Made by a program: the position numbers and the translations under genes
Notes under the pieces: model-generated
What the model was told of the DNA's origin: nothing
Seen by the model: only the letters and a program-made list of their open reading frames with translations
Database searches by the model: none
NCBI GenBank assembly: GCA_051362555.1
Contig: CM120648.1
Coordinates: 19,154,587 to 19,218,586, forward strand
Length of the DNA stretch: 64,000 bases
Direction: 5' to 3'
Source of the DNA: Lingula anatina
Taxonomy: Eukaryota > Animalia > Brachiopoda
Part shown: positions 20,766 through 56,077 of the stretch, in pieces
Layout of the letters: every line of letters begins with the position of its first letter
Position numbering within the stretch: position 1 is the first letter of the stretch

Positions 20766-21490
20766 TAAGAGACCATCCCCACAGATATTTAGATCGATCT
20801 AGCCGCCTGGGGAGTCTCACTAGATTGGTGTCAGCTTAACCGGCTTAAATGTCCCGTCTACTGAAAGCTGTAAGGGGGTAAATGACTTTCGTGTGCGCTT
20901 GGCTCCTGGAACAGAAATTTAGCGAGTTATATAGCAATTTAGGGAGCAAGATCGATCCACTTGGATCGATCTAAATCTGTGGAAACCCAGTCTAAGACCC
21001 CATTCCCACAGATTTTAGATCAATCTATCCCCGTGGGGAGTCTCACTAGATTGGTGTCAGATTAGCTGGCTTCAATGTCTGATCAGCCTACTAAAAGCTG
21101 TAAGGGGGGGGGTAATTAACTATAGTGCGGCAGACAGCAATTTAGCGTGAATCCCCAGGGAGTTAGGTGGATCGATCTTAATCTGTGGGAACGCAGTCTA
21201 AGAGACCATTCCCAGAGATATCGTACTAACTTTGAATCGATCTATCTCTAAGGGGATTCTCACTAAATTGCTATCAACTTAGGCGGCTTAAATGTCTGTC
21301 ACACCTACTAAAGATGTTAGGGAATAATTAACTACCAGAGGCCGAGCGTGCACGAAAGTTAATTATTCCCTAGTTGATTCGAAAGGCATGACAGACATTT
21401 AAGCCACTTAAGTTGGTAGCAATTTAGCGTAAACCCCTTTAGAGTTAGACTGATCCTGTTGGGTCGATCTAGACATGGGAACCCAGTCTT
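20766..21490. mobile_element. Three head-to-tail copies of the palindromic MITE
   Basis: Each starts agac(c)ccattccca(c/g)agat and ends tgg(g/a)aac(c/g)cagtct, joined through TAA; Harbinger-like by the TWA flanks. Confidence 0.75.
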
Positions 21491-24141
21491 ACACAGTGTT
21501 ATAAATTAGGGAGTATTCAGATTCAAGTTAACATACATCTAGACATGGGAACCCAGTCTTACACAGTGTAATAAATTAGGGAGTATTCAGATTCAAGTTA
21601 ACATACGTCTAGACATGGGAACCCAGTCTTACACAGTGTAATAAATTAGGGAGTATTCAGATTCAAGTTAACATACATCTAGACATGGGAACCCAGTCTT
21701 ACACAGTGTAATAAATTAGGGAGTATTCAGATTCAAGTTAACATACATCTATACATGGGAACCCAGTCTTACACAGTGTAATAAATTAGGGAGTATTCAG
21801 ATTCAAGTTAACATACATCTAAGCATGGGAACCCAGTCTTACACAGTGTAATAAATTAGGGAGTATTCAGATTCAAGTTAACATACATCTAGACATGGGA
21901 ACCCAGTCTTACACAGTGTAATAAATTAGGGAGTATTCAGATTCAAGTTAACATACATCTAGACATTGGAACCCAGTCTTACACAGTGTAATAAATTAGG
22001 GAGTATTCAGATTCAAGTTAACATACATCTAGACATGGGAACCCAGTCTTACACAGTGTAATAAATTAGGGAGTATTCACATTCAAGTAAACATACATCT
22101 AGACATGGGAACCCAGTCTTACACAGTGTAATAAATTAGGGATTATTTAGATTCAAGTTAACATACATCTAGGCATGGGAACCCAGTCTTACACAGTGTA
22201 ATAAATTAGGGAGTATTCAGATTCAAGTTAACATACATCTAGACATGGGAACCCAGTCTTACACAGTGTAATAAATTAGGGAGTATTCAGATTCAAGTTA
22301 ACATACATCTATACATGGGAACCCAGTCTTACACAGTGTAATAAATTAGGGAGTATTCAGATTCAAGTTAACATACATCTAGACATGGGAACCCAGTCTT
22401 ACACAGTGTAATAAATTAGGGAGTATTCAGATTCAAGTTAACATACATCTATACATCTATACATGGGAACCCAGTCTTACACAGTGTAATAAATTAGGGA
22501 GTATTCAGATTCAAGTTAACATACATCTAGACATGGGAACCCAGTCTTACACAGTGTAATAAATTAGGGAGTATTCAGATTCAAGTTAACATACATCTAT
22601 ACATGGGAACCCAGTCTTACACAGTGTAATAAATTAGGGAGTATTCAGATTCAAGTTAACATACATCTATACATCTATACATGGGAACCCAGTCTTACAC
22701 AGTGTAATAAATTAGGGAGTATTCAGATTCAAGTTAACATACATCTAGACATGGGAACCCAGTCTTACACAGTGTAATAAATTAGGGAGTATTCAGATTC
22801 AAGTTAACATACATCTATGCATGGGAACCCAGTCTTACACAGTGTAATAAATTAGGGAGTATTCAGATTCAAGTTAACATACATCTAGACATGGGAACCC
22901 AGTCTTACACAGTGTAATAAATTAGGGAGTATTCAGATTCAAGTTAACATACATCTAGACATGGGAAACCAGTCTTACACAGTGTAATAAATTAGGGAGT
23001 ATTCAGATTCAAGTAAACATACATCTAGACATGGGAACCCGGTCTTACACAGTGTAATAAATTAGGGAGTATTCAGATTCAAGTTAACATACATCTAGAC
23101 ATGGGAACCCAGTCTTACACAGTGTAATAAATTAGGGAGTATTCACATTCAAGTTAACATACATCTAGACATGGGAACCCAGTCTTACACAGTGTAATAA
23201 ATTAGGGAGTATTCAGATTCAAGTTAACATACATCTAGACATGGGAACCCAGTCTTACACAGTGTAATAAATTAGGGAGTACTCAGACTCAAGTTAACAT
23301 ACATCTAGGCATGGGAACCCAGTCTTACACAGTGTAATAAATTAGGGAGTATTCAGATTCAAGTTAACATACATCTAGACATGGGAACCCAGTCTTACAC
23401 AGTGTAATAAATTAGGGAGTATTCAGATTCAAGTAAACATACATCTAGACATGGGAACCCGGTCTTACACAGTGTAATAAATTAGGGAGTATTCTCATTC
23501 AAGTAAACATACATCTAGACATGGGAACCCAGTCTTACACAGTGTAATAAATTAGGGAGTATTCAGATTCAAGTTAACATACATCTAGACATGGGAACCC
23601 AGTCTTACACAGTGTAATATTTTAGGGAGTATTCAGATTCAAGTTAACATACATCTAGACATGGGAACCCAGTCTTACACAGTGTAATAAATTAGGGAGT
23701 ATTCAGATTCAAGTTAACATAGATCTAGACATGTGAACCCAGTCTTACACAGTGTAATAAATTAGGGAGTATTCAGATTCAAGTTAACATACATCTAGAC
23801 ATGGGAACCCAGTCTTACACAGTGTAATAAATTAGGGAGTATTCAGATTCAAGTTAACATACATCTAGGCATGTGAACCCAGTCATACACAGTGTAATAA
23901 ATTAGGGAGTATTCAGATTCAAGTTAACATACATCTAGACATGGGAACCCAGTCTTACACAGTGTAATAAATTAGGGAGTATTCAGATTCAAGTTAACAT
24001 ACATCTAGACATGTGAACCCAGTCTTACACAGTGTAATAAATTAGGGAGTATTCAGATACAAGTTAACATACATCTAGACATGGGAACCCAGTCTTACAC
24101 AGTGTAATAAATTAGGGAGTATTCAGATTCAAGTTAACATA
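21468..24141. repeat. 60-bp satellite array, ~44 copies
   Basis: Unit tctagacatgggaacccagtcttacacagtgtaataaattagggagtattcagattcaagttaacataca-type, highly homogeneous, with two 8-bp slippage insertions (atacatct). Confidence 0.98.
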
Positions 24142-28542: not shown

Positions 28543-29052
28543 TTTATTTTTTTATGTGAGGATTCTTGTGACCTTTGGTAATTACTAAGATGTCGGAGTC
28601 ATACCATGATTCTTCTTCTTCTTCTTCTCATTATTATTATTATTATTATAGAACAATCCTTATTCCTTGCAGATACCTGTTTTAAAATTGACATTCTACT
28701 GGCACCTGAACTCGCTGTGTCATCTATTATCCACTGCTCTGTGATGCCGTTTTGTTTCTCGTGGACTGTGATGCCGTTGCCGCCATTCTGTGTCCTGTCC
28801 TGGCCTTTCTCCTAAGCGAGTCAGTGCTGTATGTGATAAATAGGCGCCATTTTCTTCAACAGCCAGGAAGTAACAGGACGGAGATTGTGGGATAATGTTG
28901 AACATATTTGACAAAGAAAGAGATATGATCTGACCGACTTGTAGGTATATGGAGCAAGTGTTTATGTTACTGTGATCTCCAAGCTGCAGCACCAGAAGTG
29001 AACATAAAGTTTAGCAATCGCTGACAGAAATATTACAGGATCTACTGTCGGA

Positions 29053-29988
29053 ATGGAAGCCATGTTAGGGCAGTCTAGACGAGGTGTAAATCCAAGATCA
29101 GGACAGGTGACAGTACAGACACAACCTCCATTAGCTGAACAGGAAACAAATACAACATCAGCTCAACATCCTCATGTTTTCTTAGACAAGGCAGAATGTG
29201 TGCGTTCCTTCAGTACTGAACTAGAAGATGATAGAAGAACTGTCATAACTGGGTTAGCCATAGATAATGAACACATGTTTGTTGTGGATAATGAAAACAA
29301 CAGAACAAAAGTATTCACACATGAAGGACAATTTAAGTTTAACATTAAAGTAAACAGACCATGTGATGTGGCTGTGTCACAAACTGGTCACCTGTATATA
29401 ACATCACAGGGTGACAGTTGTGTCCAAGTGTACTCCACCAGAGGTCAGCAGGTGACAACCATGGGTCAGGGTCTACTGGAGTTACCATGGGGTATTACAC
29501 TGAACAGACAAGGTCATGTGATGGTTTGTGACGGAGGAAAGAAGTCCATCTTCACATTCCATGCAGACAGTGGACAGCTCCTGAACACTGTTCCACTCAG
29601 TATGTGTGAATACCCACTGTACATCACAGTGAACAGTGTGAATGATAACATTGTGATATCAGACACGTGGGGATACTGTGTACATGTGCTGTCACCTACT
29701 GGTGATCATCTGTACCAGTATGACGGCAGCAGAGAAGGCAGTAAACTGAGGTTACCACATGGAGTGTGCACAGACAGCTATGGTCACATCTTCATTGCTG
29801 ACACTGTTAACAACAGGATAGTGGCACTGAGTCCACAGGGACAGTTTTTCAGATACATTGTCACTGAGGATGATGGGTTCCTGTCTCCCACTGCAGTAGT
29901 CATCAACCCTGCTGGTCAGCTGGTGGTGGGAGAGGGGTGGGCCAATGTTAAGACATTCCAGTACATTGACCTGAAACAAGGTGAGTAA
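29053..29988 (+). CDS. NHL-repeat six-bladed beta-propeller (TRIM2/3-like C-terminal domain); probably an exon ending at 29980
   Basis: 311-aa intact ORF with repeated NHL blades (LELPWGITLNRQGHVMVCD, LRLPHGVCTDSYGHIFIADTVNNRIVAL, LSPTAVVINPAGQLVVGE). Consensus donor CAAG|GTGAGT at 29980/29981 (phase 1). The true 5' end is uncertain (possible acceptors at 29014 or 29038). Confidence 0.92.
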   Translation: MEAMLGQSRRGVNPRSGQVTVQTQPPLAEQETNTTSAQHPHVFLDKAECVRSFSTELEDDRRTVITGLAIDNEHMFVVDNENNRTKVFTHEGQFKFNIKVNRPCDVAVSQTGHLYITSQGDSCVQVYSTRGQQVTTMGQGLLELPWGITLNRQGHVMVCDGGKKSIFTFHADSGQLLNTVPLSMCEYPLYITVNSVNDNIVISDTWGYCVHVLSPTGDHLYQYDGSREGSKLRLPHGVCTDSYGHIFIADTVNNRIVALSPQGQFFRYIVTEDDGFLSPTAVVINPAGQLVVGEGWANVKTFQYIDLKQGE

Positions 29989-30584
29989 CATGTATTAACT
30001 GTGGATAGATATGATTATTATGTAAAATATTTGAAAGTTAATTAGTCTTACAATGTTTTTATCCATGAATATGTTTGCCTTTATTTCAATAAAAAAACTT
30101 TTAAGCATATTTAAATTCAGTGAGCACACAGCTGTGCTTTAGTAAAAATGTATGTAGAGTGGAGACATTTTCTATAGTTAATACTTTACTGTTACTGACC
30201 AATTTCCATGAACCCATTATAGTGATTAGGATTTTGAATAATGATGAAGAACTCTTTTTAATGGAATTTATAGTATGCTTTATTTGTATTTTTATTAAGT
30301 CACAAGAAAAACATCTTACATTGTTTAATCCCTGAACTTCTTGTCCATATGTCAGTGAAGAACAACTCAAATCTCACAACAGAACAGTCCAATTCTTCAT
30401 ATTCTTCATCTTGTAGCTGTTCATGAAAGCTTAGATATACCTAAATTCTCAAATGTATTTTGTCAAGTTTCTCGATGTCTTAATTACCACTTCTAGATTC
30501 AAAGACATTTCATCACCAGTTTGTTGTTAACACACACAAATAAATTAAATGTTGAAGTACTTTGGATGATACCTTATTTTCCTG

Positions 30585-31272
30585 GGGCCGGTTTCACAAA
30601 GCAGTAGTTAGTTAGCGATCGGTAGTTAGCCTCTCGCTAGTTATAGTGCCGTTTCACGAAGCAGTCGCTAGTTCTCTCGCTCTTTATTGTGTCGTTGTTA
30701 CCATGGATATTTAGCGACTGGTCAGACCAGTCGCTAACTCTAGAGTTTCATCGTACGCATGCGTAATGAGTGAAATAAAAAGGTTGCTTAGTTACCGTTG
30801 TCTGTCGTTTGTCTTTGTATCCAATATGGCGACAACCTTTTTTTGCTATCCGTACCCCCAGACGGCAACGTAGACTACGACGTTTTCATGAAAGGCAGAA
30901 TCTATTAGAATATACACGCGATGATGCAATTTACGAGAGGTTGCGCCTAGCTGTGACAAAAAGAGCGGCTAAAAGGTGGTGGAGATCCTTTACGACGACC
31001 TCAAAGCAGACGTTCTTATGCATTTCCAGCCGCCAGAAATTGGAGAGTTAGTGCTTTCGCGACACTTTTACGCAAGAGTTCCACTTCCGGTAGACTGTTT
31101 CGAGACTACGGTGAGTAACGAGAGAACTAACGACCGAACTTTACGACTGAACTTAGCGATGAGTTAACTACTGCTTCGTGAAACACCCCTCGAAAATCGC
31201 TAAGTTTGCTCGTTAGCGAGGTAGTTCAGTAGTTAGTTGTTCTAACTAACTACTGCTTTGTGAAACCGGCCC
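30585..31272 (+). mobile_element. PIF/Harbinger deletion derivative retaining the transposase N-terminus
   Basis: TIR GGGCCGGTTTCACAAAGCAGTAGTTAGTTAG at both ends, CTG target duplication; internal RRQRRLRRFHERQNLLEYTRDDAIYERLRL resembles the start of Harbinger transposases. Confidence 0.85.
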
Positions 31273-31522
31273 CTGACTTTGTGGATTGTTCTTTGCAAAT
31301 AAAACTAGCAGACGACCATTTTTGATGAAATGGAACTACTTTTCACAGGAATTAGTGTATTCATACACAACAGTGACCTTGGGTTTGGAATACAAAAAAA
31401 TAGTACATGCATTCATACTGTCACAGCATGCAAATTATAATGAAATATACAAAACTAAATACATTTTTATGTAACACAAGTTAAATGCATTTTTATTTAT
31501 TAAAATAATTTATTAATATTAA

Positions 31523-31568
<46 letters not shown>

Positions 31569-33398
31569 CTGGATAAAAACATTGATGAAATGGTTTTGAC
31601 CACCTTTTTGGACTTTTTAAACTTCATGCTGATAGACCCACATATTTATGTCAAAGGCCCAGACTAAATCTAGTCCCATGCATAAAAAGCCCAGACCCCA
31701 TGTTTATTACGCCCTGGCTGGGCCCATTCTTTATGGTGTTTGTTTTGTTAACAGCATAGTGGGCAAGTTAATTGACCAAGTTAATTGGCCAAGCTGCCAG
31801 TTTGTTTGTATGGCATGTGCGGGGGATGTCTTATAGAATAATAAAACCAGACAGAATATGCTGTGATTCCTAAATAAAATAGATTGGGGGGGGGGGGGAG
31901 GAGACACCAAGGGGCTCATGATTATAAATACCATAGCATTAATAATAATGGTTACATATGCACAACTCCTTTCTTATGTTTAAGTCATAACATGGTAAAT
32001 TGATCTGATTATCACGTAGGTGTAATATTTGGCCTTATCAAATATGTTTTTCATTGCATTAACAAAAATAAGTAAAATGTGTACAAAAGCCTGTTTCAGC
32101 AAAATGGTTTAAAATAATTTTTACTCAGAACATATCTTTGGAAGAACCTGCTAGGGGAGAAGACATATATGTTGTGGGAATTATACACCAATATCATATT
32201 CACCATAAATCATTGACATAAAGAGCTAGTGCATCATATTTATGACCTAAGTTGAAAATGACCCATCGTAACAGCTAGGAATAGGCACTTTTTGGACACA
32301 TAGTTGGCCATATTTTTGTAAATTGTAGTCGGATTATTATAATTCTTTTTTTATTTTGCTCCTATGAACAGTGTCTTTGATATCAGTCTAACAGCAATCT
32401 CTAATCATAAATTGTTAATTTATCAGACACTTGTAACATTAACCACATTTAATTGTTCACCCTGATTGTGAAACAGCTGCCTGCTCCAAATGTACTTGGT
32501 CTGCTCCAAATTTAAAAAAAAATATGGATGTTGATAAAATTTATTCTGAACAGTCTATAAGTCAGGCAGATTCAGTACAATGGCATATGTATTTGTAGGT
32601 TGATAAGTTATTAACTAAAGAAAAAAAAAAAACTTCATGTAATAATCATAATAGTTATACATAATACATGTATGATAATACATTTCACCACAATATGATG
32701 CAAAATTAACACCATCAAATGGAAACAAAAATAAACTTGTTTTTAAACCAACTCAACATATGTTTGTGCTACAAAACTGATACAACTGCACCAAATATCT
32801 TTTGCTATATGAAATACTTGTTGAAATGATGTTTTCAATAGAACTTATTTTTTATTTTATCTTTTTATTTAATCATGAGAAAAACTTTCTAAAATGTTGA
32901 TTCCCATTTCTTAGTATTATCATTATGCTTCACATATATATCAAGGCTGTTGCAATGTTTTTTTTAACTAGTAAACAAAATCTCTTACACTGCTACAGCA
33001 CATTATCTGCTAGCAACAATTTTTACATCTGATGGTTTTTAGAAGCTACTGTCCCTGTGATTCATCGGCTAATATTGCTTATATCTCAAGGTCAAATAGG
33101 CCAAAATCTCCTAAAAATGGGGGTTTAAAAAACATATATATGTTTGTGCCAATTTTTAGAAACTACACTGACCTAAGTGGGGGGATTACATTTTGGGACT
33201 TCATCTTCGGGAGTTTGGGGTCAATCGGTGCATTTTCACAGGGGAGGCAGCCGTTAGATGCCAAAGCTGAAAACTCTCTATTAAACCAGAACCCTTAATA
33301 CAAGAAACCTCTTGTTTTTTGCATTACATAGAGCTTGTCAAGCTCAATTGATATGTACTGGGGTTGGAATCCATTTTTTTGTTTGTTTTTGATATGTA

Positions 33399-35780
33399 CC
33401 CAGACAGCCTCAGTAATCTGGCCCACATCTGGCCCAGATCTGGCAACGTCTGGCAAAAGGTATGGCCCACGTATGGCTTGCCAGATCTGGGCCAGATGTG
33501 GCAATGTTTGGGCCAGATCTGGCCCAGACATTGCCACATCTGGCCCAGTCCACATTTGCTCATGTGGCCAGATGTCGGCCCAGATCTGGCATTATCTGGC
33601 AAAGGTATGGCATGCCGGATGTGGACCAGAAGTGGGCCAGGTTAGGGCCGGACATGGACCACATATGGCCCAGATTGTTTTTTTTTCTTTTTTTTTAAAT
33701 TATTTTTATTATTCAATTAAGATTACTATAAAAAAAAGACATACAAGATTCAAGATTCAAGTATTTATTCTGTGCTAAAACCCTAAACAAAATTATTACA
33801 CATTATATAACCTTGCTGGCAACTAACACGTAACAAATTAAGGGCCACTCCTTGTCTTTTTGTACAAAACAATGTATGTTTGAAAAAAAAAAAACTACAC
33901 TGCAAAAAGGCAAATATACAGACACTTAACAGGAGGAAATGTCACTTACATACATGTAAAGAAAACAGTTATAACAGCAATTTTTTTTCAACACAAAGCT
34001 GCTCATCGAGTCTGAATTAACACAAATTACAAAAATTGTAATTAATTATGCATATACATGGGGGGGGGGGAGGAGTTTGAGGGGGAAATATTTTTTCCTT
34101 GACAAGCTTATAATTATTAAAGGAATCAACAATGGAACAAGTAACTCTACCAAGTTAACAACAGTTCATTCAAATGTCAAGTCAAAACACAACATCCCTT
34201 CCTTTCTGGGAGAGAAACGGTCCTTTCAAAATATGTTAATTGACAGTTCAGTCTTTAAAATGTCTTTTCAAACATTTGCAGAATAGCATATGAACTCCAA
34301 CTTTTATTCCTTAAACCACACTGAAAATTCTCAAAACTAATCAACTCATATCAAATCCCATGTCCTTTCACTACTACGTACTGGTCTCTTCCTTTGCTTG
34401 CCTTTACGTCACATTCAAATGTTCCCTTCATTTTAAAGGTTTCTCAGACGTGTATGAATAATACTGTTTGTTTTCTGGTCCTCCACAAGAGCCACATTTA
34501 TTTTTCTTGGATTTCAGAATTCTCCATGTATTTTCATCAATGATATTACAATATGCACCTGAATCTGGTAATACACTGAGATTAACACCACCTCTATTTC
34601 CTCCATGTCTTCTGTGTATATTGCATTGGTTCCCACACCAAATGTATATGCACTCCTGGATTATCATGTTCAAAGCTGTCATTTACATGAATAATAGCTT
34701 CAGTTTTGCAGACTTTTGCAAAGTGATCCAACGTTCCATGTTTTCTCAGTCGGGGAGTTTCTACTTCGTTTTTCATGTCTAAACTCGTAATGTTAAGACT
34801 GACTTGGTTTGTCAAATGACTTCGGTTTCATCATACTCACAGTTTCTGGTGTTCCAATTCCATTTATGTATATTCATGTTTCTAACCTGTGTTTGGGAGA
34901 GTCCTGAAAATATCTTGTAAACCTGTCCCTGCTGAATACAACATAAGCGCGCGTCTCCTCTGTCATGTATTTTTAATTTTCTATCTTTGTTCATTATTCA
35001 TGCCGTCCGTTGGTTTTGAAAAGATCAATCTTTTCCGTCAGGTTAAAACTGTCTAGCCATCGCGTCAAGCGTGACCCTAATGTCTCTGGACTTCTGTACG
35101 GTTTGAATTCCGTAATTTCACATTTTCCTCCATTTTTTCAAAGAAAGTTGACTCACAGTTTTGCACTAGTGTTAATCCTCGTCGCCAGTGTTGATGCCTT
35201 CGAAATAAATCGCATCACGAATCAAATCACTCAACGAATTGTATCAGTTTGATAAGCTTGTGCTTTTTTCATATCCATAACTCTTTAGAAGAAACGCTAC
35301 ATCCGGGTCCCTGACCGGCTTATCATAAAAAGCGGAATCTTAAAACAGCAGAACGAGTAGTTCAAAAAAAGTTTTAGAACAGTGAATTCATTCAAATGTC
35401 AAGTCAAATTAAACAAATAGCACAGTTATGAGGGGACTTTGAAGAAAACAGAGAGAGATAAATTAAATCAAAATTTATCAAATGACGTCAGTTCACTGCA
35501 TTCAGCTCACTATAGTCCATAAAAAATAAATAAATAGAAAAAAAAAATTGAAAATGAAAGTACCATATCTGGCCCAAGTCTGGGCAGCATCTGGCAAAAT
35601 GTGGCATAAATGCCAGACTTTGCCAGACTTGGCCCAGATCTGGCAAGTGTCTGGCAAAATGTGGCATAAATGCCAGACTTTGCCCAGATCTGGCAAGTGT
35701 CTGGCAAAATCTGGCCCAGATATTGCCAGACCTTGCCAGATCTGGGCCAGACATGGGCCAGATTACTGAGGCTGTCTGGG
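33399..35780. mobile_element. Non-autonomous TIR transposon with CCC...GGG ends and TA flanks (CMC/EnSpm-like)
   Basis: ta|CCCAGACAGCCTCAGTAATCTGGCCCA ... TGGGCCAGATTACTGAGGCTGTCTGGG|ta; subterminal arrays of tggcccagatc motifs. Confidence 0.8.
34400..35301 (-). mobile_element. Degenerate Ty3/Gypsy gag-protease remnant with PBS
   Basis: Minus strand: short TG...CA segment (35301-35189), PBS-like TGGCGACGAGG (35187-35177), knuckle remnant GTLDHFAKVCK, protease VLPDSGAYCNIIDENTW; broken frames. Confidence 0.75.
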
Positions 35781-36207
35781 TAGGTTAGGAGTTGTGCTAT
35801 ATAAAAAAGTACATTTCGATATTCAGTAGTGAAGCAAAATGTGAAATACTCAAAAACTGGCAGAGATACACCCATGGTTACTATTGACCTTGAATAAGAA
35901 GTCACATACTGGCAGCCAAACTGTGACCTTGAAATTGACCTTTGACCTACTTTTCATCATGTACTAAGTCTTGCAAATTTTTTGCCTCTTTTATCTGCAA
36001 AAATGGCAGAGATACACTTACAGTTACTATTAACCTTGAATAGGAAGTCATATACTGGCAATCTTACTCTACGCCGCTTTGTAATCTGGAACATAGTCAA
36101 TCTTACACGTCAGACTTTGTGTGCAAATCGACTTTGTGATTTCTGATAAATGTCTGTATACTTCTCTTTGTTCTTCAGCAGTGATTCAGTATCCAGATTA
36201 CACACCC

Positions 36208-39200
36208 TTTTTATGTACAAACACAGATGTGTCTGTACATATAGCCATCATCTGCGTCTGTCGTCGCCGTCGTCGCCTTCGTCGCCGTGCACTTTTACCG
36301 ATAACACGATAAGTGGAATACTGTTTTTTCTTTTGGCTTGAAACTTACAGAGCTGATAAATATTCATAATACGCAGGTCAAGTTCGAAAATCAGCATGAT
36401 CGGGTCACTTTTAGGGAATTTATGCTGTTTTTTCACTTTTTTCAGCATATATGCAGCCCCGATAACACCATAAGTGGAAAACCTTTTGGCTTGAAACTTA
36501 CAGAACTGATGAATATTCATAATACGCAGGTTAAGTTCGAAAATCAGTGTGATTGGGTCATTTTTAGTGAATTTAGGCTGTTTTTTAATTTTTTCAGCAT
36601 AAATGCAGCACCGATAACACAATAAATGGAAAACCGTTAAATCTTTTGGCTTGAAATTTACAGAACTGATGAATATTCAAAATAGGCAGGTCAAGTTCGA
36701 AAATCAGCATGATCGAGCCACTTTTACGGAAGTTAAGCTGTTTTTTCACTTTTTTCAGCATTTTTGCAACACCGATAACATGATAAATGAAAAACTGTTT
36801 TACCCCTTGATTTGAAACTTACAGAACTGATAAATATTCATAATACACAAGTCGAGTTCGAAAATCAGCAGGATCGGGCCACTTTTTTGGAAGTTAAGCT
36901 GTTTTTTCCCTATTTTTTCAGCATACATGCAACACTGATAACACAATATAGGAAAAACAGATAGGCCAATTGTCATTATACTCACAGGAGTGGTCAATCT
37001 TACTAAAACGCAGGTTTAGTCCGAAAATCGGCATAATCGGTCCATTATTTTAGAAGTTATGCTGTTTTTTCACATTTCCTCAGATTTAATTCTTAGGCAT
37101 GTTAACAGTGTCATTATTGAACTATTAAGATACGTAAGTGTGTTTCTTTGGCATTTCCTGCATCTTTACAACATTGTTAGTTAATTTTGTAAAAATGATG
37201 GTAAACTTGTTATCGTGTATTGTGTAATAAAGTGTCAAAAATGAAAATAAATACATATCATTGCAGTTTGTCAGATTCAATCATCCACTATGTTCAGAAA
37301 CTCATAATGGATGAAATTGGACATATAACACTGTTCTATTGATATTTTTCCCATTTCATCAATTTTCTTAGTTTGTCATATAAAAATGGCAGTAAACTGT
37401 TTATTTTGTTTTATGTTAAAAATGGAAATAAACCCATATCAGAACAGTGCTGTCTTGTTTACATTTTGTAATTTTCAAGGTGTGACTTTGAAGTTCCATG
37501 GGACTGTAGACCTTTGCTTGTCACGTTTTCTGAATGTCCATGTTACTAATATTTTATTATGAAAATTTGATTGTCATTATGCTGTTAAACATTATGTAAT
37601 GTTGCATCAAAATTTGAAGAAACCCCTATTTATGGCACTGCTTCCATGAAGACCATTTTAGGAAAATCATGTCACTTACTGTTCTCAAACTTACAGGAAA
37701 GAAACATGGGACTAAAATACAGCTTCAGTAGGCAATGCAGTCTGTTTGGTAAATTTTTCTGGCAATTAAAACAATTTTTTTGTGAAAATTTAATTTTTCA
37801 CTTATTGGCATTTTCAAGGTGTGACTTAGTACCTCCACAGGCTTGAAGACCCATGCTAGTCACATTTTCTGAAAATCCATGATACTTATATTTTATTATT
37901 AAAAATTGATGGTCATCATGCTGTTAAGCATTATGTAATGTTGCATTAAAATAGAAGAAAACACAATTTTTGGTGCTGCTGCCATGATGACCATTATGGG
38001 AAAAAATTGTTACTTATGACTGTCAAACTTTCAAAAAAGAAACACAGGACTAAAATGCAGCCTAAGTTGGAAAAGCAGTCTGTTTAGCTTCTTTTTCTGG
38101 AAGTTATACATTTTAGTGAAATAATTATTATTATGTCTTTGGCATACTCATTGTGGGACTCGCGGCTCCCATTGACATGAAGCTGAATGGTAATCAACTT
38201 TTCTACATGTCCATGCTATTTATAGTCAATATTCAAAAATTGGTAATAATTATTCTGTAATTTTTTATGAAATGTTACATCAAAATTGACTAAAATCTTT
38301 TTGCACTGCTACTGCAAACAATATGAATAGAAAACTTATTATTATTTTTAACTTACAAGTATGATTTTTAGGATTGGCATGAACTTCAAATAAGAGAGCC
38401 AGCTCAGTTTTGTTTTCATTTTTCTCATTCTGTCACTTTCTAAATGTAATCTTGAACTCTGATGGGCCTGGAGCCTTGTGCTTTTACTTTCATCAGTGTT
38501 ACCTGTTGTGCATAATTAAAATTTGATGTTGACTGTACAGTTAAACATATTGTGTTGTTGCATCAGAGTTGGCAGTCTCCTGTTTTATTTTGTGCATTAT
38601 TTTTTCTGCTTTTCTTAAGGTGTGACTTATGGGCCTGAAGACCTGGGATAGACAAATTTGTGTGGTCAGTCTGTAAATTCCCTTTGGGTATTCACTAGGC
38701 TAATTTCAGTGCCACAAACTCATTCGCCTAATTAAGCAATTAAATTAAGCCATTAAATGAAATTTCATAAAGCACCCTTGTTGATATTTCCCTGTAAACT
38801 CCCAAAGGTTAAGCTCTCTGCCAGATAACATATCGTTCATAATAAGGAAGCAATGAATAGCAGCTTCATTGGAATTATATATATATTTTTTCTTTTTAAT
38901 TATTTCTCCAACACTGGCATTTTTAAGATGTGATTTTTAACTCCCATCCACAGGGCCGTAGCCTCCAGGGGAGCAAGGGGGCAGTTGCCCCCCCTGGGAT
39001 TTGAGGTGCAAAAAAAAAAAAAAAAAAATAATAATAATAATAATCAAAAAGGTAAAAAAAATAATTGCAAAGTTGATGTAAATTCTTTGAGAAAGTGCAC
39101 TCATGGCCACTAGCCAATCATTCAACAATCTGTTTACAAAGGTATACTGTTTTTAGCAAACTCAGTTCATGCCAATGCACCAGAATGCAGTATTATACAT

Positions 39201-39817
39201 ATAGTTTTTAAAAATTTTCCACACCGAGGGAGGGGGACAATCCCTCCCACACCCTACCCCCTCGGGGGGCTTTGCCCCCTCGTGTCCGCTTACTGCCCCC
39301 CCTGGCATTTTGCTCAGGCTACGCCCTGATCCACCTGAGGCTCTGCACATTTTCAGTATTTCCACATAAGCAGTTGTATTGGTATTTATGTCTTTAAACA
39401 CGCTGGAATATTATTTCATGCACTGTCATCTTTTTTCATATATTGGGACTTTCATCATGTGAATTTTAACTCTCATGGTCCTGAAACTGTAATCTTATTG
39501 AAGGGGTGGATTGAGACCATCTTCTGGGTCTCCTGGAAGACAGTCAGATTTTAAAGTTTATATTAACCGGTTTCTGTTGGAAGACCATCAAAATGGAGGA
39601 TGGATCAACAAGGATACTTTGGAATACTGTCAGAAAATATCTCTGGATCTGCATCTGTTAGTGACCATGTTACCTGTTGTGCATGATAATAAATTAGCGT
39701 TGACTGACTGTGCTATAATAAGCATACATTATTGCATCAAAATTGACAAAATAACCTATTTTGCATCTTTTTTTTTCTGTTTTTTGTCTGTACATTTGAC
39801 AGCTTTGCTGCCTTGTT
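36208..39817 (+). mobile_element. Helentron/DINE-1-like non-autonomous element (long family)
   Basis: T-run, hairpin ATGTACA(G/A)ACACA-GA-TGTGTCTGTACAT, (GTCGCC)n, ~161-bp tandem core, 3' sub-TIR gtctgtacat and stem-loop cagc-ttt-gctg, then TT. Confidence 0.8.
38951..39328 (+). mobile_element. Third CAGGGCCGTAG MITE, 5-bp TSD (ATCCA)
   Basis: atcca|CAGGGCCGTAGCCT...AGGCTACGCCCTG|atcca; empty site visible in the paralogous repeat near 51915. Confidence 0.88.
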
Positions 39818-40518
39818 ATCTATCTATTTTACTCAAAGTTTGTTTTACCCTGATATAAATAACACACCATAGTATTTTTGGGAATTTCTCAATTCAATTG
39901 AATTCAAAATTTTTAATTTAGCTGCGATTTATCGACTTTTGTCATCGTGAAAATATGAGATTTTACATAACACACTAATACCCAATGCATTTTCCATTTG
40001 AAAAAAAAAAAAAAAAAAACATTTCCACCAATTTAGAGTAGGTATGAGGGAGTTTTTGTGCAGGGGCGGAGCGATAAGGGGGAGTATCGGTGCAGGAAAA
40101 TATAAGTACAGGAAGTATTGGTGCGGGAAATTTAAACTGTGACGTACCTTATACACATGTAGGTACTGGGAATTGTCGGCGCGGGGGTTGTATAGGTATA
40201 ATAGTACGGAGGAGTATTTGTGCAGGGACTTAAAGCACAGGGGAGTATCTATCAAGGGACATACACAGATAGGTACGGAGAGAATTGGTGCCGGGGTGTA
40301 TAAGGTATGCTGCCGTTTAGTAGCAGTAGCAAAAGTGTACCAGTATTATGTTAAAAATTTGACGTTGTGACAGGAAAGGTAGTTTTAATGGGTGGATTCA
40401 AACATGGTCGTAGGCACGATCTGTATATATTTCTGTAACATACATTGAGCACTCCAATAACCTTTTCCCAGCCTATTTTGTCTTGATATAATCCTCTTCT
40501 GTGCTGCTCCTTCATTTA

Positions 40519-41063
40519 GAGCGCATTCTCAACGAATTAAGCCAGGCTTTACAAAGCCGGTGACCTAAAAATGGCGGACGTACATGAAAGAAAAACCGCC
40601 TAATCTTTTAATAGTCTCTCCGCCTCCTCACACGTCGTCCCTGCGGGGTACAGTAATTAAATCGCGTCTCCGTTCGCCATGTGGAAGCTACCTGAGAAAT
40701 ATTAAGTGCGCATGCTCATCAGTTAAACTCGTGGTGAAGAAAGCATGGCGGCTAAGGCGATCGAAGGAAAAAAGCTCTTCTGTTCTATTATCTTTGAAAA
40801 CAGAGACGAAAAAGGAATAATTTGGCCAGTAGAGCAGCAATGAATCGACTATCTACGGAGATAATATCACCAGAGATATCCACGGAAATATTTATGTTCG
40901 GAGCCGAGATTTAATTACAGTACCCCGCAGGGACGACGTGTGGGGAGGCGTGTGAGAGGCGGAGAGACTATTAAAAGATTAGGCGGTTTTTCTTTCATGT
41001 ACGTCCGTCATTTTTAGGTCCCCGGCTTTGTAAAGCCTGGCTTAATTCGTTGAGAATGCGCTC
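40519..41063. mobile_element. Harbinger-like MITE with ~140-bp TIRs, TTA target duplication
   Basis: tta|GAGCGCATTCTCAACGAATTAAGCCAGGCTTTACAAAGCCGG ... CCGGCTTTGTAAAGCCTGGCTTAATTCGTTGAGAATGCGCTC|tta. Confidence 0.88.
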
Positions 41064-41326
41064 TTACTGTTTAAATTCACTTCCTTTCTTGATTGACACT
41101 CCTTCCATCATCTCATCATCATCATTTAGACATAGCTGTTCAGTCTTGCTACTACTCACCTCCATCCTGTTACTCTCAAGCACATATGCAGGCATCCACC
41201 TCTCTAGATTTTCTCTCGCTTCCTCTCTGCTATCGCTTCACAATAAATATAACATCTGCAAACATCATCGTTCACCTTATCCATGAGTCCTTTTGTCAAT
41301 CTGAAGCATAACATTTGTATTACCAG

Positions 41327-41557
41327 GTGAGTTTAATGAACGGCTTCAACGGTTGTGTGAAAGGGGTAAGATTCCAGTATACCGACAGCGAGTAGCTATT
41401 GTTGGACCTTACGGTGTGGGAAAGACTCATCTCGCCAAGCGCCTTATCCATGAGGAATATATCAAAGAAGAAGATGCAAATACAACTGGCGTGAATATAT
41501 ACCGCCATAGGTGTGTTGTCCATAAAGCTGGCCGATCCTGTTGGATCAGAGGAAAAG
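41327..41557 (+). CDS. Exon encoding the N-terminal half of a Roc-type P-loop GTPase domain
   Basis: ccag|GT GAG...AAA G|gtaagc, 231 nt, phase 1-1: EFNERLQRLCERGKIPVYRQRVAIVGPYGVGKTHLAKRLIHEEYIKEEDANTTGVNIYRHRCVVHKAGRSCWIRGK; G1 GxxxxGKT and G2-like TxGV. Confidence 0.85.
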
Positions 41558-42006
41558 GTAAGCAGAATATAGGAAAACGTTAGACACATATGGAATTTGT
41601 TTATAAAGAATACAAAGAACAGAAGATAAGACATTTTCAATTTTACCACATAATTCACAATAAGGAATTATACATACATGAACGTGTGGGTGTCGAAATG
41701 TGTCCTTCCCTATCTTAGTATGGTAGACGAGGGGCTGAGTGAAAAAGTACCTAAATAAGTGGTGCCTTTGTATTGTTATCAATCAATTGACATACATGAC
41801 ACTTTACAATCTACTACTACAGCCCACTGATTATTTTTTAACTGGGTACAAACATGATAATTTCATTCTCTGTAAAAACACCATGCTTTATTTTACTCAA
41901 TATTGAATTAAATTTTTCAACGGTGTAGCCTGATACGTACACTCAGAAAAGGTACATTTAGATACAACGCTTGATCTAACTGTATGATCCTTCCACCTAT
42001 TCTCAG

Positions 42007-42162
42007 ATGATCCAAAAGACCAGTTTGCACAAAATATGGCAATTGGAGTACAGAATTCAGATACGTTTTGTGAGCCGGACTTAACAGTATTGGACCAAAT
42101 GCCACTAGAGGAATCCCTACCAGATTCGGAAGTGAATATTAATAACATGCTGACAAATAGAG
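42007..42162 (+). CDS. Predicted next exon (acidic linker/insert)
   Basis: ccttccacctattctcag|AT GAT...AGA G|gtattg, 156 nt, phase 1-1, open: DDPKDQFAQNMAIGVQNSDTFCEPDLTVLDQMPLEESLPDSEVNINNMLTNR. Confidence 0.7.
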
Positions 42163-42450
42163 GTATTGTACATGATTGTCTCGAATAGTTCATCTTGGTG
42201 CAATTTAAACAGATATTTGTAGTTATTCTTCTTTTTTGCCAAGAGATTCCACCTTCTATGTGTTTTTTGTTGGCCATTCCACATATATGTGCCTTGAAGA
42301 CAGCATCCCAAATTTTATTTTATATGTTTAAATTTTGTAAAGAAATTCCTTTCTAAATTCTTTTATCTTAGCCATGTTTTTGTTTACTTTAAAGTTGAGT
42401 CATTTTCTGCTAGAATGGTGTTTGATATTATTCTTCTCTTTATTCTACAG

Positions 42451-42501
42451 CTGCTCCCCCTGATGACAGTGAATTACCTGCCTCTCCTGACAAAACAGCA
42501 G
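42451..42501 (+). CDS. Predicted 51-nt micro-exon (Pro/Ser/Asp-rich)
   Basis: Strong pyrimidine tract ttcttctctttattctacag|CT GCT...GCA G|gtaaat, phase 1-1: AAPPDDSELPASPDKTA. Confidence 0.7.
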
Positions 42502-45500
42502 GTAAATAGTGCACATGTAGTAAAACAAGATTCTCGTGTATTCTTAGCTTGCCGATTAGGTATGTGAGTGTCTACATTCTTATTTTCATCAAACTGGGAC
42601 TTAGAACTCACATGGGCATCAAGCCCAGTGGTAATCAAATTTTCTTACTGTCCATGTTTTTAATAGAAGATAATTAAAATTTTGTGGTATTTATACAGTT
42701 GACCATTATGTTATATTGCATCAAAAACCTACTTTGTGCACTATCACCATAATGTCATAAAAAGAAAACTGTTACCTATTTTTTTATTTACAAAAATGGT
42801 TCTTAGGATTGACAAACAGCTTAAATTAGAAAACCAGCTCTTTTGAATTATTGTTTTAATCGAATTATGCATTTTTTGTGAAATTTTCATTTATCTCATT
42901 CTGGTGTGAGCTTGAACTCTCATGGGCCTGTTTTTACTTATAGTCCAAGAAATTGGTGCAGAAAAAAGGGTGAATTGTGCGTTTTTTACCTACAAGCATG
43001 AAATTTGCCACAGTTGTAGATAATGGAATTCTAAGCTTTTTTGGATATATGGGCATGTCTGAAAATTCCAGTATGGCCGCCAAATCCAATATGGCCACCA
43101 CAAATACTCTTTTAAATTAAAACATCTAATATATAGTCCTAAAATGGTTTAGAATATCATTTTATAGCTGGAAAATATCATGCTATGAATGAATTATCAA
43201 TATCCGCTTCTACAGGTGTATAGAATTCCAAAATGGCCTCCAAAAGTAAAATAAGCAGTTTACTTACGTAAAATATGCAGCAGTTTTGTAAAATCATCAA
43301 GCACTTACAATTACAAGCATAAAAATTGGCACAGTTATGTAGAACATGATTCTAAGCAACGTTGGATATAGGGGCATGTCTGAAAATTCCAATATGGCAG
43401 CCAATTTCAATATTGCCCCCAAAATACCCTTTCAAGGTGAAAGTTATTTGTATAGTCTTTTATAAAAATATCATTTAATGGTTAGAAAATACCATTGTAT
43501 GTATGAAGTATCAGTATCTGCCACTTAACGTTTTAAAATTCCAAAATGGCCTCCAAAAGTCAGCAGACCACAACTATTGAATTGTAATCACTCGTAAATA
43601 GGCATGTGGGCTTTGCAAACTACCTGTATAATCAGCATATTCCTACCTGTGCAGGAGCTATTCTACAGAGTTAAAAAAAAAAACATCAAGCATGATACAT
43701 TTATTATGTACTGAAAACAGTCCTTCTTTTGATAAACCAACATAAGTAGTTTGACTTTTTGCTCTTGATTCTCATTTAGATCAATTCCCAGTTAGCAATC
43801 TTCTTATATGGCACTCATGACTGACTCTCCCTTTCTAAGAAAAAAAGCATCGTGCAAAATTCATAAAATGTGAAAGAAACACCAGAATAACTTAGCCTTA
43901 AAGAGGCAAATATAAAAAACTTGGGGTGTACCAATTTTGTCTGTTGGTTATGATTCTTCAGCTAGATCAGTGCATGGCGCTTCATCAAATGCTCGTAAAT
44001 ATAAAAAAATGACAGCTAATCAAACATACAGGTCTCAACAATTTGGTGTTTTTTATTGGTAAAGTACTAAAAGCGGGGCACATTTGCACTCGATAATGTT
44101 ATGATGTTATCTTGTGCTTTAAAAGTAAATTAGAAAAGCTTCTTATTTAAAAAAATTGGCTTTAGTACATTCGCAGTAATGGCTACCGAGAATTTAGTGA
44201 AAATTTATGAGCAAAGAAATACCTGTACCCCAAACAGAGGGCAGGTGTTGATACGTGCTGTATCAAAGAGTTGCACTGCAGACTTCACACTTCGTGCACT
44301 AAAAAAGAAGCACTGATAGGCGCCAAACTTTGGTTTTCATTTGATCATTTGGCAACTTGTTTAGTTACAAACTTATACTTTCAAAAAACTGACATGAAAA
44401 TAAAAGAATTAAAATCCTCCAGACAGTTAATACATACAAAACTTCCAAAAACGATGTATTCTGAGGATTACACCAAGAAATTAGTGCAATATGGACTTTG
44501 AAAGGTAAATATTCATGAGATTTCCGGCATCATTGTCTCTGTGGGACAATCCAGAATGAAGCCATGAGGAGTATTCACTTACCCAGCTTACAAAATCTAC
44601 CAGGTAGCTCCTACCACATCTGTTTGTGGTTATGTGTGCAGTTGCTAACTGTGGTGAGGGGAGTCAGAAGCATTGGAAGACTGGTGCTATAAGGGTTCAC
44701 ACTAGTAACCTACATCTACTAATATGCCCTACCACACTTTCATATTCCTATTGACCCTCATGCATGTAAACTGATGCTTTCTGGTGTTAAAAACGACCAA
44801 TGCCTCTTGGTATTTTGTTGGGGAAAGTGGATTACATGTAGAAGCTTTAGCTTTAAGGAAATACTGGGAAAGCTGAGGGAAACACAACTACTAGTAAAGC
44901 TAGGCACACATTGATGAATGAAAATTATTTAACCAAATTAGTAGAAATTTCGGTGTAGCTAGCTGTTATCCTCTGTTGAGATATTGTCCATTTACTAAAG
45001 TAAAAGGTTGACCGCCCATAAAATGTGCAACTCTTACTTGATAAAATAACTTTCGTTAATTTGAAACTTATTTGTGAAAATACCTTGACATTTTCATATC
45101 CTTGACATTTATAGAATTGCTGCATGTGGTGTCACAACTAGACCAAAAGGAGTCCTGTTCCATTTTTATGTACAGACACAGATGTGTCTGTACATATTGC
45201 CATCACCTGCATCTGTCGTCGCCGATGGCGATGGCGATGGCGATGCCGGCGCCGTGCACTTTCCTTGTAAACACGATAAGTGGAGGGCAGTTTTACTTTT
45301 TGGCTTTATATTTACAGAGCTGATGAATATTCATAAAACGCAGGTCAAGTTCGAAAATCAGCATGATCGGGCCATTATTGTAGAAGTTATGCTGTTTTTT
45401 CACTTTTCAGCATATATTTCACATTTCCAAAGATTCAATTCTTAGGCATGTTAACAGTCTCATTATTAAACTAATAAGATACGAAAAAGTGTTTGTTTGG

Positions 45501-48500
45501 CATTTCCTGCATCTTTACAACATTGTTAGTTGATTTTGTAAAAATGATGGTTAATTTGTTATTGTGTATTGTGTAATAAAGTGTTAAAAATGGAAATAAA
45601 CTCATATCATTGCAGTTTGTCAGATTCAATCATCCACTATGTTCAGAATCTCATAATGGAAGAAATTGGACATTTAACACTGCTCTGTTGATATTTTTCC
45701 CATCTCATCAATTTTCTTAGTTGATCATATAAAAATGGCAGTAAACGGTTAATTTTGTTTTATGTTAAAAATTTTTAAAAATGGAAAAAAAAACATTTCA
45801 GATCAGTGCTGTCTTGTTTACATTTTGGCATTTTCAAGTTGTGACTTTCAAGTTCCATGGGCCTGAAGACCTTTGCTTGTCAAATTTTTATGTACAGACA
45901 CAGATGTGTCTGTACATCTTGCCATCACCTGCATCTGTCGTCGCCGTCGCCGATGCCAGCGCCGTGCACTTTCCTTGTAAACATGATAAGTGGAGGGCAG
46001 TTTTACTTTTTGGCTTTATATTTACAGAGCTGATGAATATTCATAATACGCAGGTCAAGTTCGAAAATCAGCATGATCGGGCCATTATTGTAGAAGTTAT
46101 GTTGTTTTTTCACTTTTCAGCATTTATGCAACCCTGTAAACACATTTTAAGGAAAACCGTTAAGCCTGTTGTCATGAAACTCACAGTAGTGGTCAATCTT
46201 ACTAAAACGCAGGTTGAGTTCGAAAATCAGGATAATCGGGCCATTATTTTAGAAGTAATGCTGCTTTTTCACATTTCCTCAGATTCAATTCTTAGGCAGG
46301 TTAACAGTCTCATTATTTAACTAATAAAACACGTAAAAGTGTTTGGTTGACATTTCCTGCATCTTTACAACATTATTAGTTGATTATGTAAAAATGATGG
46401 TAAACTTGTTATCGTGTATTGTGTAATAAAGTTTCAAAAATGGAAATAAACTCATATCATTGCAGTTTGTCAGCTTCAATCATTCACTATGTTCAGAATC
46501 TCAGAATGGAGGAAATTGGACATTCCGTCACTGTCACTGGCGCCGGCGCCGTTCACTTTCATTGTAAACATGATAAGTGGAAGGCAGTTTTACTTTTTGG
46601 CTGTATATTTACAGAGGTGATGAATATTCATAAAACGCAGGTCAAGTTCGAAAATCAGCATGATCGGGCCATTATTGTAAAAGTTATGCTTTTTATGTAC
46701 AGACACAGATGTGTCTGTACATATAGCCATCATCTGCGTCTGTCGTCGCCGTCGCCGTTGTCGCTGTCGCCGTCGTCGCCGTCGTCGCCGTCGCCGTGCA
46801 CTTTTACCGATAACACGATAAGTGGAAAACCATTTTGCCTTTTGATTTGAAACTTGCAGAACTGATGAATATTCATAATACGCAGGTCAAGTTCGAAAAT
46901 CAGCATGACCGGGTCACTCTTAGGGAATTTATGCTGTTTTTTCACTTTTTTCAACATATATGCAGCACCGATAACACGATAAGTGGAAAACCATTGTACC
47001 TTTTGGTATGAAACTTACAGAACTGATGAATATTCATAATATGCAGGTCAAGTTCAAAAATCGGCATGATTGGGCCATTTTTAGGGAATTTATGCTGTTT
47101 TTTCACTTTTCAATATAAATGCAACACTGATAACACAATATAAGAAAAACGGATTGGACAATTGGCATTATATTCACAGGAGTGGTCAATCTTACTAAAA
47201 CGCAGGTTGAGTTCGAGAATCAGCATAATCGGGCCATTATTTTAGAAGTTATACTGTTTTTTCACATTTCCTCAGATTCAATTATTAGGCATGTTAACAG
47301 TCTCATTATTGAACTTATTAGATGCGTAAAAGTGTTTGTTTGATATTTCCTGTATCTTTACAACATTGTTAGTTGATTATGTAAAAAAACATTGTAAACT
47401 TGTTATCATGTATTGTGTAATAAAGTGTCAAAAATGGAAATAAACTCATATCATTGCAGTTTGTCAGATTCAATCATCCACTATGTTCAGAATCTCAGAA
47501 TGGAGGAAATTGGACATTTAACACTGTTCTATTGATACTTTTCCCATCTCATCAATTTTCTTAGTTGGTCATATAAAAATGGCAGTAAAATGTTTATTTT
47601 GTTTTATGTTAAAAAAGTGTTAAAAATGGAAATAAACCCATTTCAGAACAGTGCTGTCTTGTTTACATTTTGGCATTTTTATGTACAGACACAGATGTGT
47701 CTGTACATATAGCCGTCATCTGCGTCTGTCGTCGCCGCCGTCGCCGTCGTTGCCGTCGCCGTCGCCGTGCACTTTTACCGATAACACGATAAATGGAAAA
47801 CTGTTTTTTCTTTTGGTATGAAACTTACAGAACTGATGAATATTCATAATACACAGGTCAAGTTCGAAAATCAGCATGATCGGGTCACTTTCAGGGAATT
47901 TATGCTGTTTTTTCACTTTTTTCAGCACATATGCAGCACTGATAACACGATAAGTGGAAAACCATTTTACCTTTTGACTTGAAACTTACAAAACTGATGA
48001 ATATTCATAATACGCAGGTCAAGTTCGAAAATCAGCATGATCGGGTCACTTTTAGGGAATTTATGCTGTTTTTTCACTTTTTTCAGCATATATGCAGCAC
48101 CGATAACACGATAAGTGAAAAACCAATTTACCTTTTGGCTTGAAAGTTACAGAACTGATGAATATTCATAATACGCAGGTCAAGTTCGAAAATCAGCATG
48201 ATCGGGTCATTTTTAGGGAATTTATGCTGTTTTTTCACTTTTTTCAGCATATATGCAACCCCGATAACACGATAAGTGGAAAACCATTCTACCTTTTGGC
48301 TTGAAACTTACAAAACTGATTAATATTCATAATACACAGGTCAAGTTCGAAAATCAGCATGATTGGGTCATTTTTAGGGAATTTATGCTGTTTTTTCACT
48401 TTTTTTCAGCATATATGCAGCACCGATAACACCATAAGTGGAAAACCAATTTACTTTTTGGCTTGAAACTTGCAGAACTGATAAATATTCATAAAACGCA

Positions 48501-55709: not shown

Positions 55710-56077
55710 TAATATAGATTTTTAAATATTTAAGACATTGCAGAAATCTTGAGTTTGGCAGTTTCTCCATGAAACACTGCTTTTTGGTCATAGCATCCTA
55801 TAGTAAACTACCCCAAACATATACCCAAAACCCCCAAATCAAATGTCAAGTTTGACCTTGACCCTCATTTTCAAGGTCATTTGGCTATTTCATGGAGAAA
55901 TATTGAAGTGGGCTAAAAGTGATGTTTAGTTGACCCCCCCTCCCAATTCGCACATGCTCTTTCAGAATATAGGGTCACATTTAACCCATGACCTTCACAT
56001 GACCTTGTAAGAGCATTTTCACACCTATTTTGCAGGGGAATCCTCCGCCACTGGCTTTAGCCAGTTGCAGTCTAGTT
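55710..56077 (+). repeat. 3' fragment of another interspersed (TGACCTT-rich) repeat
   Basis: tgaccttgacc motifs and terminal hairpin actggc-ttta-gccagt then ctagtt; interrupts the long element. Confidence 0.5.

Follow-up and report, generated by a model that had tools for sequence, protein, structure and literature searches.

An NHL propeller exon spliced to a Roc GTPase in Lingula anatina: the opening exons of a candidate modular Roco receptor family

A stretch of 64,000 nucleotides (nt) of the Lingula anatina genome (GenBank assembly GCA_051362555.1, contig CM120648.1, positions 19,154,587 to 19,218,586, forward strand; the window) was analysed in this study, which revealed four forward-strand exons joining an NHL beta-propeller to the beginning of a Roc GTPase. 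These are probably the first exons of a spliced gene that continues past the window to the Roc motifs G3–G5, a COR domain and an effector, and that would encode an intracellular sensor-switch-effector Roco (AP-GTPase) immune receptor. The NHL-Roc combination is real, is expressed at the level of the gene family, and is already present in RefSeq as models named "uncharacterized". The family is weightier than the fusion, as it pairs a shuffled, face-variable sensor with the swapping of effectors.

The coding part of exon 1 (29053–29980, 928 nt) contains the initiating Met, a leader, the NHL propeller and a phase-1 donor, and exon 2 (41327–41557, 231 nt) contains a helix, the first Roc strand, the P-loop and the switch-I threonine region. 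Exon 3 (42007–42162, 156 nt) begins a long G2–G3 insert, and exon 4 (42451–42501, 51 nt) adds an acidic and proline spacer of 17 residues. GT donors are present at 29981, 41558, 42163 and 42502, AG acceptors precede 41327, 42007 and 42451, all junctions are in phase 1, and the joined exons form 455 codons with no stop, so that the exon boundaries, the splice sites and the in-frame NHL-to-P-loop join are as the initial annotation had given them. Read-through past the exon 1 donor would meet a stop at 29986–29988, with an AATAAA at 30088, and read-through of exon 4 would meet one after three codons. Upstream of the exon 1 Met, which is the shared start of four RefSeq paralogue models, lie an in-frame stop (29005–29007) and an AG (29037–29038) that may serve as an alternative acceptor. 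RNA depth points to 28600–29052 (forward strand, start unmapped) as likely untranslated 5' sequence of exon 1, the bin 28600–29086 averaging 23.7x in RNA run X4 on the strand of exon 1. Intron 1 (29981–41326, 11,346 nt) is repeat-rich and contains 161-nt tandem arrays; it had been described as largely transposons, and indeed 39% of it is repeated within the window and repeat-derived reads cover most of its bins, whereas none of its sequence was identified as coding for a transposon protein. The exon 2 acceptor region (41324–41332) reads CAG/GTGAGT, which is also a consensus donor and a possible re-splicing site; GTGAGT is the same six letters as after the exon 1 donor.

Exon 1 matched the Pfam family NHL (E 8.9e-21), and for exon 2 Roc was the top of 33 Pfam families (E 2.8e-6; 28.0 bits, cut-off 27). 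Exon 2 covers positions 1–42 of the 119 in the Roc profile, and its P-loop, GPYGVGKT, corresponds to G1. NACHT and NB-ARC matched exon 2 at the level of the P-loop only, under the cut-off (E 0.012 and 0.025), and exon 3 matched no Pfam family. With Roc as the best match of exon 2 and Roc-COR proteins as relatives, the earlier assignment to Roco rather than NACHT stands for the family. For the NHL exon as for the P-loop exon, the best protein matches were L. anatina models. Compared with the models P0001–P0003, exon 2 is 95–96% and exon 3 is 90–94% identical, and 8–9 of the 146 residues of exons 2–4 differ. Exon 3 is present twice in model P0282; exon 4 is single at this locus and occurs in tandem copies elsewhere, being doubled in P0003.

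RNA evidence was drawn from seven of nine raw-read runs chosen by species label, the whole 14.6-kb locus being mapped with X1, X2, X4 and X7, and positions 41200–42700 separately with X4, X5, X6 and X8 at 90% likeness. Reads across 29980>41327>42007>42451 had been proposed as a check, and spliced reads were found at each joint at family level. The end of the NHL exon is joined to the exon 2 acceptor by 87 reads (12, 7 and 68 in X4, X5 and X6), exon 2 to exon 3 by 36, 11 and 81 reads and exon 3 to exon 4 by 34, 11 and 62 reads in the same runs, with none at any joint in X8. The read letters preceding the exon 2 acceptor (consensus agreement 0.75–0.81) equal window positions 29955–29978 at 23 of 24 places, the next best place giving 16 of 24. 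Together with the same junction in P0002 and P0003, on other scaffolds, and with the NHL-Roc-COR model P0006, these reads bear out the proposed fusion. Reads leaving exon 4 at 42501 enter a next exon coding AERDHL (27, 19 and 71 in X4, X5 and X6), which matches the G3-bearing exon of the paralogues, or jump back 51 letters to a second copy of exon 4 (14, 14 and 42).

Two genes at the locus, an NHL-only gene ending at 29988 and a Roc gene with another first exon, would fit the stop after the donor and the AATAAA that follows. Such an arrangement would also fit run X7, which covers NHL at about 24x and exon 2 at 0.24x (X1 and X2 barely cover either), and run X8, where two groups of three reads join exon 2 from non-NHL sequence. 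However, the 87 joining reads come from three runs, the junction recurs on other scaffolds, intron 1 yielded no further coding exon, and depth in X4, which is 21–28x over exon 1 and 24x in the exon 2 bin on one strand, drops from 21x to less than 1x directly after exon 1. We therefore regard two genes as very improbable. The X7 and X8 patterns are explained by further partners, which both the NHL exon and the Roc module have; joining of exon 2 to upstream sequence other than NHL, for which the initial annotation had allowed, is confined to the two X8 groups, against 87 reads from NHL.

The predicted remainder of this NHL-Roc gene can be followed in paralogue models. P0003 (LOC106159696) has exons 1–4 in common with the window, then G3 and G4, and ends without COR. 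P0048 (LOC106168738) starts in the last part of exon 3, runs on through exon 4 and the G3-bearing exon, and is without G1. In both, AERDHL leads to WDFAGQ (G3) and THKD (G4), and they are 86.5% identical over 163 columns. P0048 also carries COR-A (E 3.2e-22), HEPN_DZIP3 (E 8.1e-19) with an R-x4-H motif, and a hydrophobic C-terminal stretch. Because P0003 and P0048 overlap but neither is complete, the architecture was pieced together from them, and a complete chain in this lineage would be NHL-Roc-COR-effector, with HEPN as the most likely effector.

The nearest Roc-COR clade (support 100/100) contains sisters of P0048 that are 61–72% identical to it and end differently: P0047 has a HEPN tail, P0046 a caspase (E 1e-50) and P0049 a RHIM-like motif (E 0.0072, under the Pfam cut-off). 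HEPN is placed in front in P0004. The R-x4-6-H motif is intact in P0004, P0047 and P0048 and unmatched by pattern in P0217. Taken together, the modules of the nearest relatives are of HEPN, caspase, RHIM-like, Death and CARD type. A caspase fragment (P0281/P0282) is annotated beside the HEPN-tailed gene of P0048, which suggests tandem Roco arrays with different effectors.

The AlphaFold2 model of exon 1 (mean predicted local distance difference test 86, 24 strands) forms a six-bladed propeller at residues 43–305 after a 42-residue leader of low confidence, and its best fold matches are TRIM2/TRIM3 NHL structures (E 2.6e-20). From 29041 on, exon 1 is 62–63% identical to Lingula TRIM-NHL tails, and the NHL exon is 57–68% identical to the closest of these. 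Since the leader aligns with the TRIM coiled-coil/NHL linker and the exon end with the TRIM C-terminus, the NHL exon appears to stem from a TRIM-NHL gene that lost its front part and acquired a splice donor. Its five copies are 83–89% identical to each other and form one clade among 16 Lingula TRIM NHL domains (Shimodaira–Hasegawa-like approximate likelihood ratio test 99; quick tree, midpoint root). An intact TRIM gene was considered and rejected, as the queries P0008 and P0011 match only 29041–29967 and a fragment at 6801–7164, and the stop at 29005–29007 lies before exon 1. The fragment, on the forward strand like exon 1 and 22 kb upstream of it, covers the last two blades of a TRIM-type NHL domain with stops and a frameshift, and is a pseudogene.

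The same NHL exon, with the same Met and the same LKQ end, heads P0002, P0003, P0006 and P0007, which differ in what follows. P0006 is NHL-Roc-COR-A (1064 residues), and P0007 has NHL without Roc; its tail is weakly CARD-like (E 0.0085) and related to that of P0051. The Roc-COR modules of P0006 and P0048 are 26.8% identical, and grouping both Lingula NHL-bearing Roc-COR modules as one clade was rejected (approximately unbiased test, p-AU 2e-98). As far as these sequences tell, a young NHL exon on old and unrelated bodies implies that it was recently shuffled between different signalling proteins, the intron phases of the paralogues being taken from protein junctions. Neither this reuse of the exon on unrelated partners nor the effector tails had been noted in the initial annotation. 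In the whole-chain model of P0006 the Roc-COR part is confident and the first 163 residues are unfolded, the alignment being too shallow there. Among solved structures, prokaryotic Roco, LRRK1 and LRRK2 match best, in sequence for P0004 and in fold for the model of P0006. The Roc-COR of P0141 (LOC106167508) is sister to that of P0006 (77% identical); residues of about 575–1027 in P0141 form a long C-terminal domain unnamed by Pfam, which by eye resembles a trypsin-type protease effector.

P0006 was searched against 1.84 billion representatives, and Pfam was run on 40 of the 70 new Roc-bearing ones (best 5 families each), NHL being found in 2 of these 40 matches. XP_061193796.1 (Saccostrea echinata) is NHL-Roc-COR-Death and KAL3892357.1 (Sinanodonta woodiana) is NHL-Roc-COR-HEPN in one chain. 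The proposed search for NHL-Roc-COR architectures thus yielded P0006 and two bivalve models. With our own profiles, both domains were detected in 1 of 140 new representatives, P0217 being overlooked, so further cases are possible. In a Roc-COR tree of 30 hand-picked rows (without P0192, in which the motif was not found), the four NHL-bearing rows require four label changes; its long branches leave the oyster position unsure. Because the bivalve propellers and Roc-COR modules fall outside the Lingula clades, the bivalve proteins likely arose separately. The suggestion of a lineage-specific immune-type receptor is thus favoured indirectly as to immune type by the hypervariable top face described below and by the death-type tails of relatives, and is not strictly upheld as to lineage, as oyster and freshwater mussel have NHL-Roc-COR too. 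Other Roc-COR matches carry Neuralized, ankyrin, SH2, Macro, Bcl-2 or RRM modules in front and TIR, Death, CARD, caspase, OTU, GT4 or kinase modules behind; in the ESM Atlas, the nearest clusters comprise Roc-COR(-HEPN) from molluscs and WD40-Roc from bacteria, with NHL in 0 of 10 rows. As invertebrate Roc-COR proteins are generally modular, the NHL-Roc fusion as such is less surprising. Partner combinations of Roc-COR have been put at "as many as forty" (PMC11378527). P0155 of Owenia fusiformis (CAH1786849.1) is Bcl-2-Roc-COR-caspase and sister to the Lingula Roc-COR-caspase P0166.

Variation among the NHL exons is concentrated on one face of the propeller. Loops b-c and d-a were counted as top and loops a-b and c-d as bottom (PMC4015489), with the strand order from the model; the partial copies P0285 and P0145 were left out. 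Variable positions among five copies number 38 of 69 in top loops, 1 of 52 in bottom loops and 23 of 142 in strands (Fisher p 3e-11). Variability is highest on either side of the conserved proline that precedes strand a in each blade, and equivalent positions around these prolines hold 4–5 different residues among the 5 copies. Pairwise difference is 0.378 at the top, 0.012 at the bottom and 0.089 in strands, compared with 0.60, 0.35 and 0.36 in a control of 16 Lingula TRIM domains (4 of 20 with fewer than 230 aligned residues being left out); the corrected top/bottom ratio is 41.5 in the five copies versus 2.2 in the control. NHL domains contact their ligands through the top face (PMC4015489), and the pattern in these five protein sequences, compared without codons, is one that diversifying selection on a binding face would be expected to leave. 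The invariant bottom face may serve as an interface within the protein or with a partner.

Several observations weigh against the reading of the locus as an immune-type Roco gene that continues past the window. The stretch 42502–64000 (forward strand), predicted to continue a long intron, is 81% repeated within the window, and no G3, COR or effector exon was detected in these 21.5 kb by tblastn with 7 and 11 relatives, a Roc-COR profile or a 20-letter pattern (up to 3 mismatches), which confirms that G3–G5 and COR are absent from the window, as had been noted. The RefSeq models P0001 and P0002 end at exon 4 with the same read-through stop. No single database chain of this Roc lineage combines NHL, complete Roc, COR and effector; P0006, a complete NHL-Roc-COR protein, is of the other Roc lineage and has no recognised effector, and every paralogue is a gene model built on a fragmented assembly. 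For the whole locus, the 15 joints listed, where intron repeats dominate, do not include the direct 29980>41327 joint (184 more joints were counted). The reads stem mostly from other alleles or paralogues and not from this haplotype: their consensus has Glu for Asp-306 of the window, window letters at 41364, 41445 and 42475 are rare or absent in them, and those at 41364, 42100 and 42475 alter residues relative to nearly all reads. Because these differences are fixed or nearly fixed, the splice pattern is established for the family and not for this haplotype, and with G3 and COR absent from the window this copy is a candidate for a complete gene. As to function, top loops exceed bottom loops in variation among TRIMs too, and relaxed constraint with gene conversion may also give the top-face pattern. 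An RNA ligand for the propeller is not supported, since the charge of the top face is not consistently positive (by residue count, K+R 8–14, D+E 10–14 and net -6 to +4 over the 5 copies, with 8 K/R versus 13 D/E in the window copy). Finally, the immune role is a candidate one, drawn by analogy.

These points raise the question of whether this copy is a truncated duplicate ending at exon 4, either decaying or acting as a ligand-binding, non-signalling decoy, in which case the family reading would hold but not for this locus. The stretch empty of further exons, the shared stop of P0001 and P0002, the three residue-altering window letters and the NHL pseudogene at 6801–7164 would all suit such a copy, as would the part of the reads that continues past exon 4 (10.8x in bin 42526–42576 versus about 70x in exon bins of X6). 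However, the reading frame is open through all four exons and their splice sites are intact, the majority of reads leaving exon 4 reach the G3 exon or a second exon 4 copy, and a longer intron is plausible given that intron 1 already spans 11.3 kb and 81% of the downstream stretch is repeats; truncation therefore appears unlikely.

A real but non-immune fusion is also conceivable, in which the propeller would be an RNA- or protein-binding module guiding a Roco GTPase in housekeeping or development, the variation coming from relaxed constraint on exposed loops together with gene conversion of the framework. Binding of RNA or proteins during development has been described for NHL domains (PMC4015489, PMC9634614), and the greater variability of top loops in Lingula TRIMs agrees with this. 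Nevertheless, the bottom loops are as exposed as the top loops yet almost invariant (1 of 52), the variable sites are equivalent across blades around the prolines, and the nearest relatives are joined to the HEPN, caspase, RHIM-like, Death and CARD modules listed above. Expression also differs strongly between runs (exon 2 bin 24x in X4 and less than 1x in X1, X2 and X7), and we consider a non-immune role quite improbable.

If the immune-receptor reading is followed, the top face of the propeller would bind a fast-changing non-self or damage ligand, and binding would shift the GTP/GDP and monomer/dimer cycle of Roc-COR, for which competing models have been reviewed (PMC6320773). This shift would gather the C-terminal effectors, which may be a HEPN RNase with a membrane anchor as in P0048, a caspase or a RHIM-like motif, and the gathered effectors would cause RNA cleavage or cell death; shuffling at phase-1 introns would yield new receptors. 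Each step is drawn by analogy with bacterial LRR-AP-GTPase-COR-effector proteins and brown algal LRR-ROCOs. A broader and more tentative proposal is that Lingula possesses an NLR-like repertoire built on a GTPase. The TRIM-derived NHL exon might then be a portable hypervariable cassette under diversifying selection, swapped by phase-1 shuffling onto Roc-COR switches and death-fold adaptors and triggering HEPN RNase, caspase or RHIM-type killing, and bivalves might have reached the same design separately. If true, lophotrochozoans would possess, in NHL propellers, a class of variable pathogen sensors that has so far escaped recognition.

Knowledge of Roco proteins in animals comes mostly from LRRK2 and DAPK1, and no role has been assigned to the many invertebrate forms. 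The present family provides a testable case for invertebrate Rocos as intracellular immune receptors, in which the candidate sensor face and its variable residues are pinpointed, the predicted effectors belong to recognisable killing types, and the apparent recent shuffling would show a route by which such receptors are assembled. The expansion of TRIM-NHL genes in these animals might also find an explanation here, if the propeller serves as a general scaffold for variable binding.

The window contains further repeats. On the reverse strand, positions 3–3455 hold an open reading frame of 1151 codons running off the window, a polyprotein of a Pao/BEL-type long terminal repeat retrotransposon (DUF1759, RVT_1, Peptidase_A17). 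A satellite lies at 21467–24141 (70-nt unit, 38 copies, 96% matches). Arrays of 159–161-nt units are dispersed at 36297–37077, 46806–48928, 54147–56735 and 59059–59686, often after a GTCGTCGCC-type microsatellite; they are abundant in RNA reads and are likely a non-autonomous mobile element family. Inverted arms of 114 nt at 40513–41069 (96% complementary, 329 nt apart) resemble a miniature inverted-repeat transposable element and end 260 nt before the exon 2 acceptor.

In the literature searched, which covered subscription papers in small part, no description of an NHL-Roco protein and no paper on Lingula Roc-COR was found. The term "NHL" does not occur in the searched text of PMC11378527, whose Figure 2 of domain combinations might show NHL-Roc, and the two of four "NHL" places examined in the supplements of PMC8195603 are sequence letters.

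Similar to known Roco proteins (Chlorobium tepidum Roco, LRRK1/2, DAPK1, MASL1), the family has a Roc P-loop, with G3, G4 and COR-A in paralogues; it differs in having NHL in place of LRR or ankyrin in front, no kinase, and a long G2–G3 spacer of small phase-1 exons in variable copy number. TRIM-NHL proteins (TRIM2/3/71, Brat and the Lingula TRIM2/3-like expansion) share the six-bladed NHL fold and the linker that matches the leader, whereas here RING, B-box and coiled coil are absent, the propeller is N-terminal, and a donor replaces the old stop. The bacterial LRR-AP-GTPase-COR-effector proteins (PMC8195603) likewise combine a fast-changing N-terminal repeat sensor, a GTPase-COR switch and interchangeable effectors including caspase and TIR; the Lingula proteins are animal and multi-exon, with a TRIM-derived NHL sensor and phase-1 module exchange. 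The brown algal LRR-ROCO candidate immune receptors (PMC11378527) also represent an expanded Roco family with exon shuffling and a variable sensor ligand face, but there single phase-2 LRR exons are shuffled within the sensor, whereas in Lingula a single exon holding the entire sensor has moved between unrelated signalling bodies, with swapping of effectors too. Sensor-NTPase-effector logic is shared with NLR/STAND proteins carrying HEPN_DZIP3, a domain fused to NACHT, CARD, Death and LRR in animal expansions (PMC3710099); unlike these, the Lingula family has a Roc GTPase switch and not a STAND ATPase, with the sensor first and the effector last. Closest in design are the uncharacterised bivalve proteins XP_061193796.1 and KAL3892357.1, which have the identical domain order, including NHL-Roc-COR-HEPN, on propellers and Roc-COR modules that fall outside the Lingula clades on long branches.

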